A stretch of DNA of 32,000 nt from Wolbachia endosymbiont of Cimex lectularius (GTDB lineage: Bacteria > Pseudomonadota > Alphaproteobacteria > Rickettsiales > Anaplasmataceae): positions 330,001-362,000 of the forward strand of contig NZ_AP013028.1 in NCBI RefSeq assembly GCF_000829315.1, written 5' to 3'. The position numbers and the translations under genes are program-made. The notes beneath the pieces are model-generated. The model did not search any database. It was not told where the DNA came from and saw only the letters and a program-made list of their open reading frames with translations. This document shows, in pieces, positions 7,366 to 26,500 of the stretch; position 1 is the first letter of the stretch; every line of letters starts with the position of its first letter.

Positions 7366-7767
7366 AAATAATGAAACAGAGGCAATCGTCACTTAAAGAA
7401 GAAGGCGGTAAATAGTGCTCAAAAACTAATGCAATAATTCGGCTACTTGAACTAGCGATAAACAAGAAAAAAGAGGAACAAAGCACAAAAGAAAACGGAG
7501 CAGCGTCCAGCAGCAATATTGGAGGCGTTGTGAGTACTGATCAAACTGACTCACTAAATATTGATAATGATGTTAAAGATTTATATGAAAGCATAAATAA
7601 AACTATAACACTTGCAATTCGCCAAGTAGTGAAGTCACTAGTCTTGAAGATTTGCAAAAGAGACTAAAGAGAAAGATTAATTTTCAAAATAAATACACAG
7701 GAAGTGATTTATCAATAGGAAACCTGCTTTTGGAGCTCGCAACGAAAAATGGTCACCCTCACGTTAA

Positions 7768-8627
7768 GAACCTGTTTAAAATCTTCGTAACAGGAGAGAA
7801 ATGAAGGAGAGGACTATCATCTGTAAGCTAGTGTTGAGCTTCCGCTCGCAATTTTTCCACAATCGCCTGCACTTTTCTAACCAGGCAAAAGAGCGTTCAA
7901 CAACCCATCTTTTTGGCAATACGACGAAAGTGTGTAACTCACTTCGCTTTATTACTTCAACAGTCGCACCAATGATAGCTTTTATTTGTGTTGCAAAATT
8001 TTCTCCTGTGTAGCCAGCATCAACCAGTATGTTTTTAACTTCAGAGAGGTTTGCTTTAGCATTTTCGACCATTTTCACAGCACTGCTACGGTCAGTTGCT
8101 TCTGCCGTTGTTACATAAATTGCATGTGGCAAACCTTGTGTATCAACTGCAATATGGCGCTTTATCCCCGAAATCTTTTTACCTGCATCATAGCCTTTTT
8201 TTTCAGCAGTATCTGCGTTTTTAACGCTTTGAGAATCAATTATACAAAAGCTAGTTTTCTCTTTCCGACCATTGCTGATACGGACCTCTCCAACTAATTT
8301 TTTTTAAGACTAATTCCAACAAGCTTGGCTCTTCTCCATTCTTTTTACTCCACACTCGAAAATAGTAATATACGCTTTCCCATCTTGGAAAACCCTTTGG
8401 TAACATCCTCCACTGACAACCACTTTTTAAGACGTACAACACCCCACAAAATACGTCATACAAATCAAGTTTTCTTGGTTTTGTTTTCTGCTTGCTACTC
8501 TCCAAAATTGGCCTGATTTTTTCAAACTGCTCTTGACTTATATTACTTGGATAACTTTTCTGCATAGACACCTCATTATTAATCTATGCTTACTTTACCT
8601 CACATTTCCAAGATTTTAAACAGGTTC
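7768..8627 (-). mobile_element. IS5-family insertion sequence, copy 1 (ISWpi1-like by recollection)
   Basis: 860 bp. Perfect 18-bp terminal inverted repeats GAACCTGTTTAAAATCTT. TAA direct duplication at 7765-7767 and 8628-8630. Removing the IS plus one TAA restores the HVKKFFLKNG frame of the host gene. Confidence 0.9.
7776..8571 (-). CDS. IS5-family DDE transposase, two frames (orfA 8571-8251, orfB to 7776) joined at an A8 run
   Basis: OrfA carries the HTH-like LYVLKSGCQWRMLP segment. The orfB frame carries IIDSQSVK, GYDAGKKISGIKRHIAVD, LVDAGYTG and VVERSFAWLEKCRRL (DDE signature of IS5). The orfB frame opens at the A8 run (8298-8305). Confidence 0.85.
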
Positions 8628-9122
8628 TAAGAAATTTTTCCTTAAGAATGGATTTACCCTTCCTCAACAAGAGCAGGTAGCTGCAGTGGCAAATGAGGAA
8701 GAGGAGCAAAAACACACCTAGTGTAAAAGAAAATAAACCAGCGCCTCCCACACCAACAGAAGAAACAGATACAGGCCCAATTCCTATATCAAGCGGTGGT
8801 AATAATTCTCACGGCTTCACAAATCCTCAATTTTCTCCGTCAAATGAAGAGGAAACTAAATATAAAGAAAGCAAGGAAAATTTTCATATCTCATTAAGGA
8901 ATGATGTTATTGGAGTTGTTATTACAGGGTTATTCATTGCTGCCGCTGTGATGGTTCCATCTATAGCTGGTGCAGCGGTTTGTGGTATTGTAGCTGCTTT
9001 AGCTCTAGTAGCTACTGGGTTACACGTAAAAGATTCTACATTGCCAAGTTATAAAGAGATGAAAGAAGTTGAACTTACGAAACAAAGTTACCGTGCTACA
9101 GTAAACAACGCTGGAATCTAAT

Positions 9123-19001: not shown

Positions 19002-20177
19002 ATGTCAGATGTGATATCAATTGCCTCAGACCACGCCGGTTATGAATTAAAATCAGAGATAAAGCTTTACCTGGAAACCTTGGGTTATACAGTGATAGAT
19101 CGTGGCTGCACTGCTGAGCAAAAGAGTGTAGATTATCCAGACTATGCTGTTAAAGTTGTAGAGGATATAACAAATAAAAAAGCAAATTATGGGATATTAA
19201 TCTGCGGTACAGGCCTCGGTATGAGTACCGTAGCGAATCGTTTTGAAGGAATTCACGCTGCTTTATGTAATAGCGTTGAGATTGCAAAATTAGCTCGCGA
19301 ACATGGCAACGCAAATATACTGTGTCTTGGTGCAGAGTTTACTGCAAGTGAATTAGCGAAAGACACAGTCAAGCAATTCCTTGAGACAGAGTTTTCAAAA
19401 GAAAGTAGACATAAAAAACGCCTCGATAAACTCAGCAATATAACTTCTTCTAGTAAGAAAAAAAAAACACAAACCTATAACGAAGATGAAGTATCAAAAT
19501 TCGCTAAAATGGCAGGAGAGTGGTGGGATGAAAATGGCAAATTCAAGCCATTGCACATGATGAATCCTGTGAGAGTATCATACATTATTGAGAAAATAAA
19601 AGAGTTAAAAAAATGCGATTTAAAGGAATTATCATTGCTTGACATTGGGTGTGGTGGCGGCATTTTGTCAGAGTCAATGGCTCGAGTTGGCATTAACGTT
19701 GTGGGAATAGATGTATGTGAAGAAAACATAAAAGTGGCACAGTCACACGCGAAAAAAGTGGGATTAAACATAGAATATACGTATACCAGCATTGAAGAAC
19801 TGAAAAATGACAAAAAATACGATGTGATTCTACTTATGGAAGTGGTTGAACATGTAGATAATTTAGAATTTTTCATGAAAAAAGCGACAGAATTGCTAAA
19901 ACCAGAGGGACTGATTTTTATATCGACAATAAATAGAACTATCAAATCCTTCTGTCTTGCAATAATTGGTGCGGAATACATATTAAACTGGCTGCCGAAA
20001 GGTACACATAACTGGAATAAATTTCTTAAGCCATCAGAAATTGCAAATCACCTAAGAGAAAATAATGTCACACTACAAAACATGGCTGGCATGGAATATA
20101 ACGTAATAAAGCGTGAGTGGAACTTAACCAAAGATGTGGATGTTAATTATATACTTTGTGGTGTAATGAATAGTTAG
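19002..20177 (+). CDS. fused ribose-5-phosphate isomerase B / ubiquinone biosynthesis O-methyltransferase
   Basis: Residues 1 to ~145 match RpiB (SDHAGYELK...GILICGTGLGMSTVANR...NANILCLGA). Residues ~160-391 match UbiG (FAKMAGEWWDENGKFKPLH...LDIGCGGGILSESMA...LMEVVEHV...VDVNYIL). The two are joined by the linker SSSKKKKTQTYN in a single frame. Confidence 0.8.
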   Translation: MSDVISIASDHAGYELKSEIKLYLETLGYTVIDRGCTAEQKSVDYPDYAVKVVEDITNKKANYGILICGTGLGMSTVANRFEGIHAALCNSVEIAKLAREHGNANILCLGAEFTASELAKDTVKQFLETEFSKESRHKKRLDKLSNITSSSKKKKTQTYNEDEVSKFAKMAGEWWDENGKFKPLHMMNPVRVSYIIEKIKELKKCDLKELSLLDIGCGGGILSESMARVGINVVGIDVCEENIKVAQSHAKKVGLNIEYTYTSIEELKNDKKYDVILLMEVVEHVDNLEFFMKKATELLKPEGLIFISTINRTIKSFCLAIIGAEYILNWLPKGTHNWNKFLKPSEIANHLRENNVTLQNMAGMEYNVIKREWNLTKDVDVNYILCGVMNS

Positions 20178-20267
20178 CTTTAAAAGCATCATCTTTTATT
20201 TCCACAGTGGCTCAGAAGGATCAACGCATTCTCTTTTATTACTTGCCACTTTGCCATCAGGACATGG

Positions 20268-20518
20268 CTACCAACTCCTCCTGTCGGGATAAACCCATCC
20301 GTTTGTACCCACAAACCAATACTCATCGGTAGCAACACATTTTCCACCTTCCATCATTTGTCCCTCATAAAGACAGCAAGCTTCTCTTCCTGTGATCTTT
20401 TTCACAACTTGAGGAGTACCAAAAAACACAGCAACAAACACACCAAGTGAAAAAAGTGCAGGCCAAGGCATTCTACCAAATATTGCAAGTAAGCTTGCAC
20501 CAATTATCACCACTGTAA
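20268..20518 (-). pseudogene. VirB2/TrbC-like type IV secretion pilin, C-terminal fragment (split by IS copy 2)
   Basis: TVVIIGASLLAIFGRMPWPALFSLGVFVAVFFGTPQVVKKITG aligns with the two hydrophobic helices, the FGR motif and the KTLTG end of Agrobacterium VirB2 as recalled. It continues in frame from 21384-21513 once the IS is removed. Confidence 0.55.
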
Positions 20519-21380
20519 GAACCTGTTTAAAATCTTGGAAATGTGAGGTAAAGTAAGCATAGATTAATAATGAGGTGTCTATGCAGAAAAGTTATCCAAG
20601 TAATATAAGTCAAGAGCAGTTTGAAAAAATCAGGCCAATTTTGGAGAGTAGCAAGCAGAAAACAAAACCAAGAAAACTTGATTTGTATGACGTATTTTGT
20701 GGGGTGTTGTACGTCTTAAAAAGTGGTTGTCAGTGGAGGATGTTACCAAAGGGTTTTCCAAGATGGGAAAGCGTATATTACTATTTTCGAGTGTGGAGTA
20801 AAAAGAATGGAGAAGAGCCAAGCTTGTTGGAATTAGTCTTAAAAAAAATTAGTTGGAGAGGTCCGTATCAGCAATGGTCGGAAAGAGAAAACTAGCTTTT
20901 GTATAATTGATTCTCAAAGCGTTAAAAACGCAGATACTGCTGAAAAAAAAAAGGCTATGATGCAGGTAAAAAGATTTCAGGGATAAAGCGCCATATTGCA
21001 GTTGATACACAAGGTTTGCCACATGCAATTTATGTAACAACGGCAGAAGCAACTGACCGTAGCAGTGCTGTGAAAATGGTCGAAAATGCTAAAGCAAACC
21101 TCTCTGAAGTTAAAAACATACTGGTTGATGCTGGCTACACAGGAGAAAATTTTGCAACACAAATAAAAGCTATCATTGGTGCGACTGTTGAAGTAATAAA
21201 GCGAAGTGAGTTACACACTTTCGTCGTATTGCCAAAAAGATGGGTTGTTGAACGCTCTTTTGCCTGGTTAGAAAAGTGCAGGCGATTGTGGAAAAATTGC
21301 GAGCGGAAGCTCAACACTAGCTTACAGATGATAGTCCTCTCCTTCATTTCTCTCCTGTTACGAAGATTTTAAACAGGTTC
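20519..21380 (+). mobile_element. IS5-family insertion sequence, copy 2 (862 bp)
   Basis: Same TIRs as copy 1. TAA duplication at 20516-20518 and 21381-21383. It is 2 nt longer because the internal A run at 20943-20952 is A10 rather than A8. Confidence 0.9.
20575..21372 (+). pseudogene. IS5-family transposase with an additional frameshift (A10 tract) in orfB
   Basis: After GATACTGCTG the run is A10. Reading then gives ...AEKKKAMMQVKRFQG* instead of ...AEKKGYDAGKKISGIKRH as in the other four copies. Confidence 0.75.
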
Positions 21381-21513
21381 TAATCATTGCTCCACCAATT
21401 CCATGAATGTAGCGTATTGAATTACACATTACATCTGTTGCTCCATCAGCGTATGTATCAAATGCGTAGAATAGGAGCAAAGCTTCAAATAGAATGGCAA
21501 ATATGTCTTCCAT
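21381..21513 (-). pseudogene. VirB2/TrbC-like pilin, N-terminal fragment
   Basis: MEDIFAILFEALLLFYAFDTYADGATDVMCNSIRYIHGIGGAMI reads from the ATG at 21513 down to the IS junction. It joins in frame to TVVIIGAS... across the single TAA target site. Confidence 0.55.
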
Positions 21514-21715
21514 TGTTCTTCTAGTGATCTTTGGTTTCGCGCTCCATTATCCCTTATTTTGATTAATTTTCAGTGAATAGTTTTTTTCCAATAAGGTTTA
21601 GTAGTATGTTCTCTGTGGTGTGGTGATACCAAATGTAATAGGACAAATTAAATTGCCAATCAACAATGGTGTCATTTCAGCGCCCCTCCTCCTGTTATCC
21701 AAGTAGCCTTTTCTT

Positions 21716-21852
21716 GTCATCCAAGTGCGTGACACTGGGATCCAGCCTTTCCATAATCATCAAAACGTCGTATTTTAACATGAAACAGCTACTTTTATAC
21801 TCACCAACTTAATAAAATTCCTGGATGCCAGTGTCAGCTACTTGCATGACAC
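21716..21852. mobile_element. MITE-like hairpin-TIR element, copy B
   Basis: TGTCATCCAAGTGCGTGACACTGGGATCCAG ... CCTGGATGCCAGTGTCAGCTACTTGCATGACA. The core is nearly identical to copy A. Confidence 0.7.
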
Positions 21853-22296
21853 CCCCCTACCCAATTCATGAATTACAATTAGCAATAAACATTAAGAAAT
21901 TTATCAAATGAGAAAAAAAGCAAAAGAAACCCTGGTCGGTAGCTAATTATTTATATGTACCTCAAATATCGGCGTTTTTATTCTCAGCGCTACGATTTAG
22001 CTACTTTTAAATGCAAATAACCAAAACTGTAAACGTTAAGAAATTTACTAAATAGGAAAAAGGGCAAAAAAACTCTAGGGCAGCTAGTATTCAAATTCTC
22101 CCTTGTCTATTTGACGTTCTATACTGTCTTAAACGACTTATAAGCGCGTTTCAGCTTGTATAGGTAAAAACCAGAAGTTTTAAAAAGACGTAAGGTGCAC
22201 ATAGTGCAAAAATTTAAACATGAGACGCCAAATACCCTAAGTTTTTTGTCATTAACCTGCACAGATTGCGAAGATAAACAAATAGCTTCAGTATTA

Positions 22297-22326
22297 TTAT
22301 AAGGGGGATTGACGAAGGTTGTCAAG
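22297..22326 (-). promoter_or_regulatory. sigma70-like promoter motif at the right edge of repeat copy B
   Basis: Minus strand: TTGACA (22326-22321), 18-nt spacer, TATAAT (22302-22297). The -35 hexamer overlaps the rluD stop codon. Confidence 0.4.
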
Positions 22327-23306
22327 TAGTTTTTTTGTTTCTATAATTTGTTATTTCTTCAAACTCATCAATTAAAGTTCTCATGTCTTGCGGTAAATCA
22401 GAGCAAAAGTCCATATATTCCTTACTCCTTGGGTGATATAATCCTAGCTTATAGGCATGTAATGCTTGTCTATTGAAGCTACGGACAAAATCGGAGCTTT
22501 TAGCGTATTTTGCACTTTTACTACTGTTTTTCCCGTAAACTTGATCACCAACAATAGAATGTCCCATGTGACTCATATGTACTCGAATTTGGTGTGTTCT
22601 GCCCGTTTCTAAAATGCATTTGACTAAGCTTACTTGTCCTATAACTTTCTGCACCGAATAATGGGTAATTGCCAGTTTTCCTATGGTTTTCACTACACAC
22701 ATCATTTCTTTATTGCCACGTTTTGGAGCAATATTAGTTTTTATTGTTCCCTGGTTAGAAGGCAATATTCCCCAAACTACTGCTAAATATTCCCGCTTTA
22801 TCTTGCGATTTGACAGTAATTCAGACAAAAAACTATGGGCTTCTTCATTTTTTGCAATTACCATCAGCCCACTAGTATCTTTATCGAGTCTATGAACAAT
22901 TCCTGGTCTTACGTGGGTATATGGAATTTTACCAAGATGAGCAATAACTGCGTTCAAGAGCGTATCATTGTTTGTCCCGGCACCTGGATGCACTGTTAAT
23001 CCACTTTGTTTATTGAGAACTATAATATCCTCATCTTCGTAGATAATATCAAGTTTTATGTCGTGATTAGGCTCGATTGATGTGGGTTCGCTAGAAGTAA
23101 GATGCACCACATACTCCTCACCTGGTTTTACCATGTGATCGTTATTAGTTATAGGCATGCCGAGTAATTTCACTTGCTCATCTTGTATCAATCTCTGGGC
23201 TTTACTGCGTGATATGTCACTTTTCAGTTATGTAGGTGTCTAACCTTAATTTTTTCCCATTATTATCAATATTTAAGGTTACATCTATTACAACTACCCC
23301 ACGCAT
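22322..23306 (-). pseudogene. rluD: 23S rRNA pseudouridine synthase RluD (RluA family) with a frameshift in the N-terminal S4 domain
   Basis: The catalytic core is intact (HRLDKDTSGLMVIAK, GRTHQIRVHMSHMGHSIVGD). Upstream, MRGVVVIDVTLNIDNNGKKLRLDTYITEK* (ATG at 23306) is one frame away from ...SDISRSKAQRLIQDEQVKLLG. The shift must lie within 23220-23227 (CTGAAAAG). Confidence 0.7.
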
Positions 23307-24898
23307 GCTGCTTTAAATGCTGCTTGAATATCTGGATCTATAAAATCAACTTCTGTACTAGGAAGATAGCCCTGTTTTTCAATATGGCAAGTTGTCTGAG
23401 AACCGTCTTTCCAGTGGATTATTATCTTGTTGTCAAGGTTCCGCAACGTTGCCTTTTCTCCTAGCTTAATGGATTCTAAAACGTAATACAAAAATTCACT
23501 TGGTTTGCCGTTGATTTTTTCTTGCCGTTCATTTGTTTCTTCTTGCTTCCTATTTATCTTTCCTTGCTCAGCAAGCTCTTTCTCTAAGTCTTTTTCTCTT
23601 TGTGTTAACTCATTACTTTCTTTTTGTAACTCCAGAGCTTTAACTCTTTTACGTTGTTCTTTTACTTTGCTTTCTAATAGATTAGCGGTGTTATCTTCAT
23701 TTTCGGAAGGAGAGCTACGACCACTGTCAGACTCAGTTGTTTGTTCATTCTCTTGTGTTTCTTGAGATTGTGTACTCGACTGTGACCGTGAGTGCCACCA
23801 TGTGCTCGGATTAAGCTTATTCGCAGCATTTTCCAGTGCAACTGCTGCATTCTTAACGGCATCCGTTGTACCATTAACATCTATTGCATTCAATTTTTCC
23901 TGCACACTTTTTTCAATCCCCTTAAACAAATAATCCGCTTTTTTTCCTGCTTCATTAACATTTCCTTTTATATTTTCCCCTACATCATCAAGCACTTCTC
24001 TAACCTTAGCATTTGCAGGTTTTAGAAAGCTATTCTCAACTAACCCCAATATTTGCGATTGTAAATCGTCCTTCTCCTTACTTTCAAATTTATTTTCGAT
24101 TACTGATACAACACTGCCTTTTCTGCATGGAAGTAGAATATCTGCACTATCGAATTTTTTAACGGTATTACATGCGTTATCTACTTCATTATTTCTTAGT
24201 TTACTTAATGTTATGCATGCACCAACAATAGCTATAACACCTACTGCTGCAATGAAAGTCCATTGTTTCCAGCTTTGAATATTGGCAAAGCCAAATTTTG
24301 CCAATGCACCAACCACAGTTAGACCACTTAGCACATATGGTACAGTAAGCAAAACAATTTTATTTCTATTCTCTTGTCTTTTGTTTTCCAATATTTCTCC
24401 CTGTTTTCCAGAAATTGGTAAGGCTATAGAAAAATTTTCTTTTTTGTTGCCTATAGGGCTCGTGTCTGGAACAATTTCTATTGTCAATGCATTTTGAGCA
24501 ATCTCATTTATTCCGTCACTTTCTCCGCCTCTAATCTCTCTATCTATTGTATTCTTGCCATTTTTTAATATTTCATCTCTTATTTCTTGCTTGTGTGCAT
24601 GCTTTATAATAAGAAAAGTTAATAAAATTGTTCCAAGAATAACAGAAGCAAGAGCATAAGCTGGCATTGCTCTTGAATTAAGAATATTTGTAATGAAGCT
24701 CATATCGTGGCTAGTTACTACGACTGCAGCAACATAGGCTAGAGAAAATTGAAGCCAAGCATTCACAGCAACTATGGGTATGGTATTATTTACAGAATAT
24801 TTCTTTGTTGCACGCCATATTCTAGTAAGGTATCCAGTAACAGCTACATCATGATTTAGCTTGAAGTTAAAAGAATTTTCTGTAGTACCTGGGTTCAT
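23294..24898 (-). CDS. hypothetical membrane protein with acidic, coiled-coil C-terminal half
   Basis: 534 aa with several hydrophobic helices (for example AVNAWLQFSLAYVAAVVV, AYALASVILGTILLTFLII, IVLLTVPYVLSGLTVVGAL, FIAAVGVIAIVGACITL). These are followed by an S/Q/E-rich tract and a K/E-rich coiled coil. No family recognised. Confidence 0.55.
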   Translation of the reverse strand: MNPGTTENSFNFKLNHDVAVTGYLTRIWRATKKYSVNNTIPIVAVNAWLQFSLAYVAAVVVTSHDMSFITNILNSRAMPAYALASVILGTILLTFLIIKHAHKQEIRDEILKNGKNTIDREIRGGESDGINEIAQNALTIEIVPDTSPIGNKKENFSIALPISGKQGEILENKRQENRNKIVLLTVPYVLSGLTVVGALAKFGFANIQSWKQWTFIAAVGVIAIVGACITLSKLRNNEVDNACNTVKKFDSADILLPCRKGSVVSVIENKFESKEKDDLQSQILGLVENSFLKPANAKVREVLDDVGENIKGNVNEAGKKADYLFKGIEKSVQEKLNAIDVNGTTDAVKNAAVALENAANKLNPSTWWHSRSQSSTQSQETQENEQTTESDSGRSSPSENEDNTANLLESKVKEQRKRVKALELQKESNELTQREKDLEKELAEQGKINRKQEETNERQEKINGKPSEFLYYVLESIKLGEKATLRNLDNKIIIHWKDGSQTTCHIEKQGYLPSTEVDFIDPDIQAAFKAACVG

Positions 24899-24959
24899 AA
24901 ACTTCCTTATATCTTAACTAAATTAATTATATACTAATAACACTGTAAAAGCAAGCTTT

Positions 24960-25203
24960 TTAACTTAAAGTCACATGCCAAGGCCTGTTGGAGCGCACTT
25001 TACTAATCTTTATGTCACTATTTGTTAACCAAATAGAATGTGTGCCATATGTCTCTAAATCGGCGTATCTAATAACTGTAGTATTACAAACTGGATAGTT
25101 GAATTTGCTTAACTGAATTATTAAGTCAACTCTGTCACAACTTTCTACAACCTCTTCTTCTTTTTTATAAGCAAGCAGCACTGATTTATTATTCCCTTTG
25201 TTA
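24960..25203 (-). pseudogene. comEC: comEC/rec2 fragment 3 of 3 (C-terminal)
   Basis: Removing IS copy 3 and one TTA joins ...KCSDYGCIY to NKGNNKSVLLAYKKEEEVVESCDRVDL... in frame. Confidence 0.7.
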
Positions 25204-26063
25204 GAACTTGTTTAAAATCTTCGTAACAGGAGAGAAATGAAGGAGAGGACTATCATCTGTAAGCTAGTGTTGAGCTTCCGCTCGCAATTTTTCCACAATC
25301 GCCTGCACTTTTCTAACCAGGCAAAAGAGCGTTCAACAACCCATCTTTTTGGCAATACGACGAAAGTGTGTAACTCACTTCGCTTTATTACTTCAACAGT
25401 CGCACCAATGATAGCTTTTATTTGTGTTGCAAAATTTTCTCCTGTGTAGCCAGCATCAACCAGTATGTTTTTAACTTCAGAGAGGTTTGCTTTAGCATTT
25501 TCGACCATTTTCACAGCACTGCTACGGTCAGTTGCTTCTGCCATTGTTACATAAATTGCATGTGGCAAACCTTGTGTATCAACTGCAATATGGCGCTTTA
25601 TCCCTGAAATCTTTTTACCTGCATCATAGCCTTTTTTTTCAGCAGTATCTGCGTTTTTAACGCTTTGAGAATCAATTATACAAAAGCTAGTTTTCTCTTT
25701 CCGACCATTGCTGATACGGACCTCTCCAACTAATTTTTTTTAAGACTAATTCCAACAAGCTTGGCTCTTCTCCATTCTTTTTACTCCACACTCGAAAATA
25801 GTAATATACGCTTTCCCATCTTGGAAAACCCTTTGGTAACATCCTCCACTGACAACCACTTTTTAAGACGTACAACACCCCACAAAATACGTCATACAAA
25901 TCAAGTTTTCTTGGTTTTGTTTTCTGCTTGCTACTCTCCAAAATTGGCCTGATTTTTTCAAACTGCTCTTGACTTATATTACTTGGATAACTTTTCTGCA
26001 TAGACACCTCATTATTAATCTATGCTTACTTTACCTCACATTTCCAAGATTTTAAACAGGTTC
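25204..26063 (-). mobile_element. IS5-family insertion sequence, copy 3
   Basis: 860 bp. TTA duplication at 25201-25203 and 26064-26066. One TIR substitution (GAACTTG at 25204-25210) and one coding substitution (T to M, ...YVTMAEA). Confidence 0.9.
25212..26007 (-). CDS. IS5-family DDE transposase (orfA/orfB joined at A8 run 25734-25741)
   Basis: Same architecture as copy 1. The second homopolymer is 8 nt, so the orfB frame is continuous. Confidence 0.85.
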
Positions 26064-26500
26064 TTATATATGCAGCCATAATCGCTACACTTTAGTTTTT
26101 TGTTTGAATTATTGTATTTGGTATGATTTAAAATTTGATTCTGCCCGTTTTGCTTTGCCCACGTTCTGACAACAAAGTTCCTATTTTTTCTAGTGAGAGA
26201 ATATAGCAAATTATCACTCTCCTTTATTGCAACATTATCAGCGCTGACTAGAATATCAGGAGTTCTATACATAGCGCTGAAGAAAATACCCAGCATAATA
26301 AAGAAAATTCCAAAGAAACGCCAATTTCTTTCCCACAAGCACAGCCACAATAACCCAAGTGTTGTTATTATAACTGATGAGACAGGGAAAGTGCGAATGG
26401 GAATAACCAAATACTGAAAACTAGCGATTGCATTTGTTATATACAAAACACTGTCAATTGGGCGCTCTATGAGCGGCGCTATAATCCACTCAATGCCTAA
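26064..26500 (-). pseudogene. comEC: comEC/rec2 fragment 2 of 3 (internal)
   Basis: GIEWIIAPLIERPIDSVLYITNAI...TLGLLWLCLWERNWRFFGIFFIMLGIFF...KLKCSDYGCIY. The first 15 and last 9 residues of ORF 26036-26542 are encoded by IS ends. Confidence 0.7.

Follow-up and report, generated by a model that had tools for sequence, protein, structure and literature searches.

We analysed a 32,000-nt stretch of the genome of the Wolbachia endosymbiont of Cimex lectularius (contig NZ_AP013028.1, positions 330,001 to 362,000 of the forward strand), which we call the window and number from its first letter. The region considered here contains dnaG, a gene resembling those of gene transfer agents (GTA/ORFg15-like), rluD, comEC, a tRNA gene and five near-identical copies of an IS5-family insertion sequence (IS). 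It also contains three modules, A, B and C, made of ordered blocks in common and all in one orientation, on the minus strand, as an earlier interpretation made from the letters of the window (hereafter the sequence-only reading) had stated. We recovered the modules both as repeat families (D7-D9 and D11-D13) and in a three-way alignment, and a profile of the core family, run with nhmmer, found exactly three copies in the window, namely C (412 bits), B (366 bits) and A (57 bits).

The sequence-only reading took each module to be a single unit. Each is instead a composite of a promoter-bearing core (~450 nt) and a long palindromic hairpin of the WsnRNA46 family, since of 83 family members only 32 (39%) have the hairpin after the core. 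The core of copy A is a divergent subtype, which we call A-type. Downstream of the promoter motif B and C are 86-91% identical (D11, D12) and differ by 1-nt indels among other changes, in agreement with the roughly 90% that had been estimated by eye. The features of the three modules are as follows; the gathering score of the Rfam model of the hairpin, RF02625, is 65.3 bits.

22296..22325, minus strand: promoter of copy B, with -35 TTGACA at 22325-22320, an 18-nt spacer and -10 TATAAT at 22301-22296
22289, minus strand: predicted transcription start of copy B, the G of GAAGCTATTT, by homology to wMel oTSS_-_131390 (tss_+1+2 = GA; 86.5% identity)
21885..22345, minus strand: core repeat of copy B (nhmmer, 366 bits; D9)
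22344, minus strand: 5′ boundary of the copy B core, at ATAGAAAC, from the comparison with rluD of other supergroups
22075-22030 and 21931-21886, minus strand: the two internal sub-repeats of the copy B core
21696..21872, minus strand: WsnRNA46-family hairpin of copy B (Rfam, 43.9 bits, E 1.4e-6; below the gathering score)
29855..29871, minus strand: left terminal inverted repeat (TIR) of copy C, ATAGACTTTTTGCATAT, the sole TIR kept in the window, with no right TIR
29794..29822, minus strand: promoter of copy C, with -35 at 29822-29817, a 17-nt spacer and -10 TATCAT at 29799-29794; predicted start at 29787
29391..29841, minus strand: core repeat of copy C (nhmmer, 412 bits)
29186..29380, minus strand: WsnRNA46 hairpin of copy C (RF02625, 67.4 bits, E 8e-13; above the gathering score)
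17027..17055, minus strand: promoter of copy A, with -35 TTGACA at 17055-17050, a 17-nt spacer and -10 TATCAT at 17032-17027
17020, minus strand: predicted transcription start of copy A, the G before AGGGTATTT, by homology to wMel oTSS_+_1247436 (720 counts per million, cpm; 84.7% identity)
16715..17071, minus strand: divergent core of copy A with one sub-repeat (nhmmer, 57 bits), located between the dnaG stop (17078) and the start of the ORFg15/GTA-like open reading frame (ORF; 16489), neighbours assigned by Pfam
16545..16719, minus strand: WsnRNA46-family hairpin of copy A (Rfam, 55.6 bits, E 7.5e-10; below the gathering score)

For A and C these promoter coordinates are exactly those given by the sequence-only reading, while the motif of B had been placed 1 nt away from its position at 22325-22296.

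Promoter conservation and mapped start sites

All three sites show the arrangement expected of a sigma-70 promoter, that is TTGACA and a TATAAT-like hexamer spaced by 17±1 nt. Scored against this consensus the promoter of B reaches 12/12 and those of A and C 11/12, which makes them the top minus-strand matches among the 42 promoter-like sites found in 16000-30200; the total number of such sites in these ~14 kb equals the expectation from shuffled sequence. A plus-strand site at 22319-22347, overlapping the -35 of copy B, also scores 11/12. Other plus-strand promoter-like sites, with GTGACA or ACGACA, a 17-nt spacer and CATAAT, lie within the hairpins of B (21729-21757) and A (16578-16606) and are convergent with the main promoter.

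We computed promoter conservation over 116 distinct copies of the family. The mean consensus frequency is 98% in the -35, 90% in the 12 nt upstream of it, 71% in the spacer, 70% in the discriminator and ~84% in the transcribed body, and TTGACA is the best-conserved 6-mer of the whole element (rank 1 of 293 six-mer windows). In the -10 the frequencies at positions 1-6 are 0.98/0.96/0.84/0.59/0.96/0.91, which is the T1/A2/T6 pattern of a functional hexamer, with at least 0.91 at positions 1, 2, 5 and 6 and the lowest value (0.59) at position 4. Spacer length is 17 nt in 90 of the 93 copies with intact hexamers. Hence the statement that the hexamers are better conserved than their surroundings was right, and the accompanying one that the spacers are unrelated was wrong: the spacers are homologous between copies and only more diverged.

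Start sites at homologous copies were available from a Cappable-seq study of wMelPop-CLA and wAlbB (PMC12558409), in which the Wolbachia promoter motif is given as TTGACA/TATAAT. In Tables S1-S2 of that study we found five start sites for which the upstream 50 nt and the downstream 100 nt are the promoter-core element: three of B/C type in wMel (131390, 713865 and 1067756, with 40-69 cpm), one of A type in wMel (1247436, with 720 cpm) and one A-type-like in wAlbB (1119165). In all five a TTGACA/TATCAT box lies upstream and +1 is 7 nt after the -10, and over 150 nt these copies are 83-87% identical to those of the window. They share with the window copies the promoter box, the leader sequence and the distance of the start, and differ from them in genomic location and in supergroup; moreover, the study treated them individually and not as one repeat family. 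In its tables none of the family's wMel start sites is classed as primary; they fall into the orphan, intragenic or pseudogene-associated classes. Within 4 h, whether at 34 °C or at 21 °C, two of the B/C-type wMel copies rise by 2.7- to 5-fold.

Because start sites are mapped at these homologous copies, a real and functional promoter is well supported by homology, and we infer from it activity in the window strain, with predicted starts at 17020, 22289 and 29787 on the minus strand. The sequence-only reading had expected 5′ ends 6-8 nt past the -10. This is borne out for the wMel and wAlbB homologues, the 5′-triphosphate starts of which lie at 7 nt, and extends to the window strain by homology only.

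We also compared the family with other published transcripts. Identity with ncrwmel01/02 or with the orphan start site 915,471 was ruled out, the sequences being unrelated. The wMel antisense start site 218317 begins within a repeat of the hairpin type, an arm of which supplies its TTGACA.

Repeat family, hairpin and surrounding genes

A 20-mer taken from the B/C block matched at least 120 stretches in assemblies representing one genome per species, all of them from Wolbachia or Rickettsiales. The core profile (~450 nt) gave at least 191 matches in tiles that come from nine genomes of Wolbachia, most of them supergroup-F-like, and 123 of these matches start at profile position 20 or before, which defines a sharp common 5′ boundary ~25 nt upstream of the -35. 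Many matches of the 20-mer or of the core sit at contig ends, and the lower bounds on the number of copies per genome go up to 28-44. The family is present in supergroups A, B and F. It is small, multi-copy and dispersed, and it has no transposase gene, with no conserved ORF in the nine genomes, as is characteristic of MITEs (miniature inverted-repeat transposable elements). Of the two natures proposed from the letters, that of a mobile element agrees with this picture of a dispersed, high-copy and partly TIR-bounded repeat.

TIRs of 15-17 nt (TAGACTTCTTGCATAA) are present in some members only: the left one in 27 of 121 copies, the right one in 9 of 61 and both in seven copies, with spans of 467-899 nt. 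In many copies ATAGACTTCTTGCATAA lies 45-60 nt upstream of the -35, and its reverse complement ends many 3′ ends. The 3′ end of the core is variable, with one or two internal sub-repeats; alternative blocks make the body a mosaic, and one promoter box is found joined to several different leader types. Other short repeats often form the flanks of the core. Such short modules beside the cores (21625-21700 and 29100-29186 on the minus strand, and at many other loci) make of the intergenic DNA a patchwork of pieces, among them ~21-nt tandem units (GGCTACTTGGATGACAAGAAAAGGA) placed after the hairpins, an inverted repeat (IR)-bounded module of ~110 nt (TTATACCAA...TTGGTAT) flanking the cores and an upstream flanking module, CCACTACACAGAAAGCGGACAGACAACAGTGG.

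At the end of dnaG, what comes after the junction with the promoter box (17050-17100, minus strand; L091:147) is an A-type leader in the window and a B/C-type leader in a termite metagenome-assembled genome (MAG). That the same junction carries different leader types suggests that family members have recombined, or have undergone gene conversion, at the promoter box.

Plasmid collections gave no matches to the promoter-core repeat, and the lone match in phage collections is a 91-nt promoter fragment in the wRi 'phage WO' record MN180249.1 (L123:1500-1600). This fragment, with an intact promoter box and the first ~60 nt of the leader, lies between ruvA and rnhB, points in antisense into rnhB, at the annotated 3′ end of that gene, and is identical to the sequence of the wMel start site 1067756.

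Regarding the product of the core, we rejected protein coding. The 68-aa ORF of copy B is an artefact: it opens with the TTG of its own -35, is interrupted by 1-nt indels among the copies and has no Pfam match, as the sequence-only reading had argued from the indels; a small ORF starting with ATG is absent in one subfamily. None of the module ORFs has a Pfam match, hence there is no reverse transcriptase or transposase hit, and Rfam families other than RF02625, group II introns included, gave no match at E up to 1 in 16000-30200, results that speak against the alternative of a group II intron or of the 3′ fragment of an IS. The other nature proposed from the letters, a structured small RNA (sRNA) or leader, likewise lacks support in the core. 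Precisely, RNAalifold on 38 full copies gave -23 kcal/mol over 527 columns, with a covariation term of -2.2 and compensatory changes at only 4 of 42 pairs, and the fold of the single sequence has a z-score of -0.65, with no support for structure. No terminator-like site was found in the core.

The sequence-only reading did not recognise any characterised RNA family. The 3′ third of the module is, however, Rfam RF02625, WsnRNA46, and aligns end to end with that model. Copy C passes the gathering score over the full model (positions 1-151), and the hairpins of A and B are full-length matches below it, that is, clear relatives and uncertified members. All three match on both strands, and the element is therefore palindromic. 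Its arms (GGTGTCAT..CCAGTG..GACACTGG..ATCCAG) form the same long imperfect hairpin as RF02625. For copy B the minimum free energy of the fold is -57.5 kcal/mol (z -4.1). The hairpin is kept across 20 copies, with 23 consensus pairs in 14-19 of the 20 sequences; the distribution of G-U pairs points to the minus (sense) strand, and double changes are found at only 3 pairs. One third of the hairpin matches are not near any core. A 34-nt segment of the loop, ATGTTAAAATACGACGTTTTGATGATTATGGAAA, is invariant in A, B and C while the stems vary.

WsnRNA-46 goes back to Mayoral et al. 2014, as cited in PMC12796755 and PMC5105140, and according to secondary reports it pairs with palindromic sequences within ORFs. 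The recurrence of the arm motif in comEC fits that description: the comEC ORF (27349-28911) carries, at 28328-28376, a short palindrome CCAGTGCGTGACGCTGG and the hairpin-arm motif GACACTTGGATCCAG (28362-28376), of the WsnRNA46 or Wolbachia palindromic element (WPE) type, and this internal palindrome is similar to the palindromes that have been reported as in-frame insertions in Wolbachia genes. The module differs from the Rfam family in that its upstream promoter-bearing core lies outside it, and in that the hairpin recurs independently of the core and inside ORFs. Compared by description only, WPE (2005, cited in PMC4224334) and the Rickettsia palindromic elements are like the module hairpin in being palindromic and in occurring also inside coding sequence, whereas the promoter core is not palindromic.

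As for the genes around the elements, the modules had been said to point toward accessory genes. This does not hold as a property of the family: when ORFs of 150 aa or more are considered, the nearest one downstream is co-oriented with the element in 32 cases and opposed to it in 36, with no orientation bias, and these counts rule out a dedicated promoter for downstream genes as a family property. For genes upstream there is a tendency toward co-orientation, with their ends at the 5′ edge of the element (65 to 44, p = 0.055). The modules of A and B had further been described as starting at or just after the stop of a housekeeping gene. This needs correction: the -35 of A begins 22 nt past the dnaG stop (17078), and in B the last ~8 codons and the stop of rluD (22316-22345, minus strand) are repeat sequence and the stop TGA (22324-22322) lies inside the -35. 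The site at the 3′ end of rluD is occupied, with last codons and stop derived from the repeat, in the window and in wTis, and empty in supergroups A and B and in W. massiliensis. Outside the F-like clade rluD has a different, earlier end and is followed by dgkA or a virB9-like gene. RluD of the window shares 90-92% identity with its counterparts in Mansonella Wolbachia, cicada Wolbachia and termite-associated MAGs, and some 80-85% with the orthologues of supergroups A and B. Exact matches are confined to two fragmented assemblies.

The five IS5-family copies (7765-8636, 20516-21384, 25184-26066, 26497-27380 and 29915-30781; ~870 bp, 99-100% identity) each carry DUF4096 and DDE_Tnp_1 in split ORFs, and their ends differ from the TIRs of the repeat family. 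The pair at 25184-26066 and 26498-27380 is in inverted orientation with a 431-nt segment between, one copy lies 75 nt from module C and another ~290 nt from module B; in one sampled locus (L121) a related IS splits a copy of the core. The virB2-like ORF (20268-20513, minus strand, 81 aa) matches the TrbC/VirB2 profile in its C-terminal part only and abuts an IS copy, and is probably an IS-disrupted remnant. In wMel the primary start site of TrbC/VirB2 ranks within the 20 strongest.

Explanations for the repeat family

The best explanation, to which we give a probability of about 70%, is that the core is a MITE-like non-coding repeat with a live promoter, emitting a non-coding transcript that reads into the neighbouring sequence. 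It would thus be a selfish-looking repeat family seeding orphan transcripts and not a unique regulatory gene. Each module would be a mosaic of at least two dispersed-repeat families of Wolbachia. Its 5′ part would be a ~450-nt non-coding repeat, beginning ~25 nt ahead of a near-consensus sigma-70 promoter, with the look of a non-autonomous transposable element; we call it MITE-like because some members are bounded by the 15-17-nt TIRs. RNA polymerase would start 7 nt after the -10, transcribe the unstructured body and, meeting no recognisable terminator, run on downstream. In the window the read-through would encounter the WsnRNA46-family hairpin 420-600 nt from the start site, and from there would proceed in the direction of the ORFg15-like gene (A), the IS and the virB2 remnant (B) and tRNA-fMet/comEC (C). 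Because the hairpin lies downstream of the promoter, the three loci are most likely transcription units for WsnRNA46-type precursors, in which the hairpin would be co-transcribed with the core. Transposition would be the mode of spread, and any regulatory effect of the transcripts is conjectural.

Several observations weigh against this explanation. The copies are of recent common ancestry, and conservation alone is no proof of selection. Two of the three window copies are without TIRs, and there is no consistent target-site duplication: a TA is possible but indistinguishable from the ends of the TIRs, and none longer was seen. At the 122 sampled loci we found no autonomous partner IS with matching TIRs. 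Candidates for such a parent were rejected, since TIR pairs 1.3-3.4 kb apart enclose housekeeping genes (tatC, gapA), truncated copies are cut by contig ends with no transposase following, and the IS630 fragment that a supergroup-B genome has near rluD is without a matching TIR. The empty sites at rluD also have a different downstream gene, so that a clean insertion is unproven, and BLAST of the flanks of the sampled loci returned no empty sites, only orthologous filled ones. Few family members were scored by Cappable-seq because PMC12558409 discarded multi-mapping reads (mapq filter). Finally, as the hairpin follows only 39% of the cores, the link between the two may be a chance juxtaposition of repeats.

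An explanation with the same origin, which differs from the MITE-like promoter repeat only on present activity, is that the repeat is the decayed left end of an IS, made of a TIR, the transposase promoter and a 5′ untranslated region, in which the promoter survives through the youth of the copies and not through use or selection. TIRs together with an inward-reading promoter near the left end are the layout of many IS elements, no other prokaryote is reported to reach the MITE density of Wolbachia (PMC11602168) and the wMel genome paper lists unclassified IR-flanked repeat families (PMC368164). However, no transposase ORF follows any copy at the 122 loci, and conservation is not uniform, the hexamers and the 17-nt spacing being kept while spacer and discriminator drift. 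The joining of the same promoter box to different leader types, and the firing of the promoter in strains of two other supergroups, also speak for present activity, and we consider mere decay unlikely.

Somewhat less likely still is that each copy is the genuine promoter and long 5′ leader of its downstream gene, so that the copies act as a shared cis-regulatory cassette co-regulating accessory genes (ORFg15/GTA-like, virB2-like and comEC). The homologous promoters fire, at all three window copies the protein-coding gene that comes next has the orientation of the module and copy A ends ~5 nt before the 962-aa GTA-like ORF, for which such an arrangement may hold locally. Against it stand, beyond the window, the downstream ORFs of the family (32 co-oriented and 36 opposed) and the wMel start sites, none of them primary, and, within the window, the IS between module B and the truncated virB2 remnant and the plus-strand tRNA that intervenes at C.

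We hold a third explanation to be just as doubtful as the second, namely that the core is a multi-copy gene for a trans-acting sRNA of ~400 nt, the RNA product of which is under selection and, being needed, accounts for the conserved promoter. It would account for an active promoter followed by transcribed blocks (TTTTTTGCACTATGTGCAC and CAAGCTGAAACGCGCTTATAAGTCGTTTAAGAC) that are 90-99% conserved, for the presence of the family in three supergroups and for the shift in expression of wMel copies within 4 h of a temperature change. One of these conserved blocks, however, contains the 20-mer used to collect the copies, so that its conservation is biased; the core has neither a conserved secondary structure (RNAalifold; z-score -0.65) nor a terminator, nor an Rfam match at E up to 1; and a variable 3′ end, one or two sub-repeats and block-wise mosaicism do not fit such a gene.

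The more ambitious reading of the composite, as a modular and mobile sRNA-gene cassette formed by promoter core and WsnRNA46 hairpin, would give supergroup-F-like genomes dozens of self-promoted precursors of cross-kingdom small RNAs, spread by transposition or recombination and, through their common promoter box, co-regulated and stress-responsive, the last because of the rise of the wMel copies after the temperature shift. We regard it as improbable to a similar degree.

Related elements and meaning for Wolbachia

The Correia repeat-enclosed elements of Neisseria, and bacterial MITEs like them that bear promoters, are related in kind. They are small, non-coding, intergenic and in high copy number, have TIRs, carry functional promoters to new sites and alter the transcription of their neighbours. 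While Correia elements measure ~100-155 bp and have promoter parts at their ends, the Wolbachia element measures ~450-650 nt and has one complete consensus promoter near its left end, reading through it. Furthermore, the Wolbachia element is a mosaic, for which a TA duplication and a transposase that mobilises it are both yet to be established.

Within Wolbachia, Wu et al. 2004 (PMC368164) described unclassified multi-copy repeats of wMel that are flanked by IRs and unlike known mobile elements, for example family 8 with 45 copies. Compared by description only, these are multi-copy and IR-flanked like the promoter core, and the paper names no promoter in them. The hairpin, the wMel and wAlbB start sites as anonymous entries, and the richness of Wolbachia in MITEs and IR-flanked repeats are already known. 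In the accessible literature we found no description of the promoter-carrying family or of its link to WsnRNA46 loci.

Although regulators are few in Wolbachia, orphan and antisense transcription is pervasive there. A repeat in many copies that has the best consensus promoter of the genome is a concrete source for part of this transcription: the family explains several published 'orphan' start sites of wMel and wAlbB, and it provides an explanation, open to test, for the transcription of WsnRNA46-type hairpins. For annotation, calls of small ORFs within such repeats are probably spurious, and some gene ends are built from repeat sequence, as is the C-terminus of rluD in the window. Wolbachia is still genetically intractable, and a compact promoter of its own, for which homology provides validation in several supergroups, would be a practical tool.

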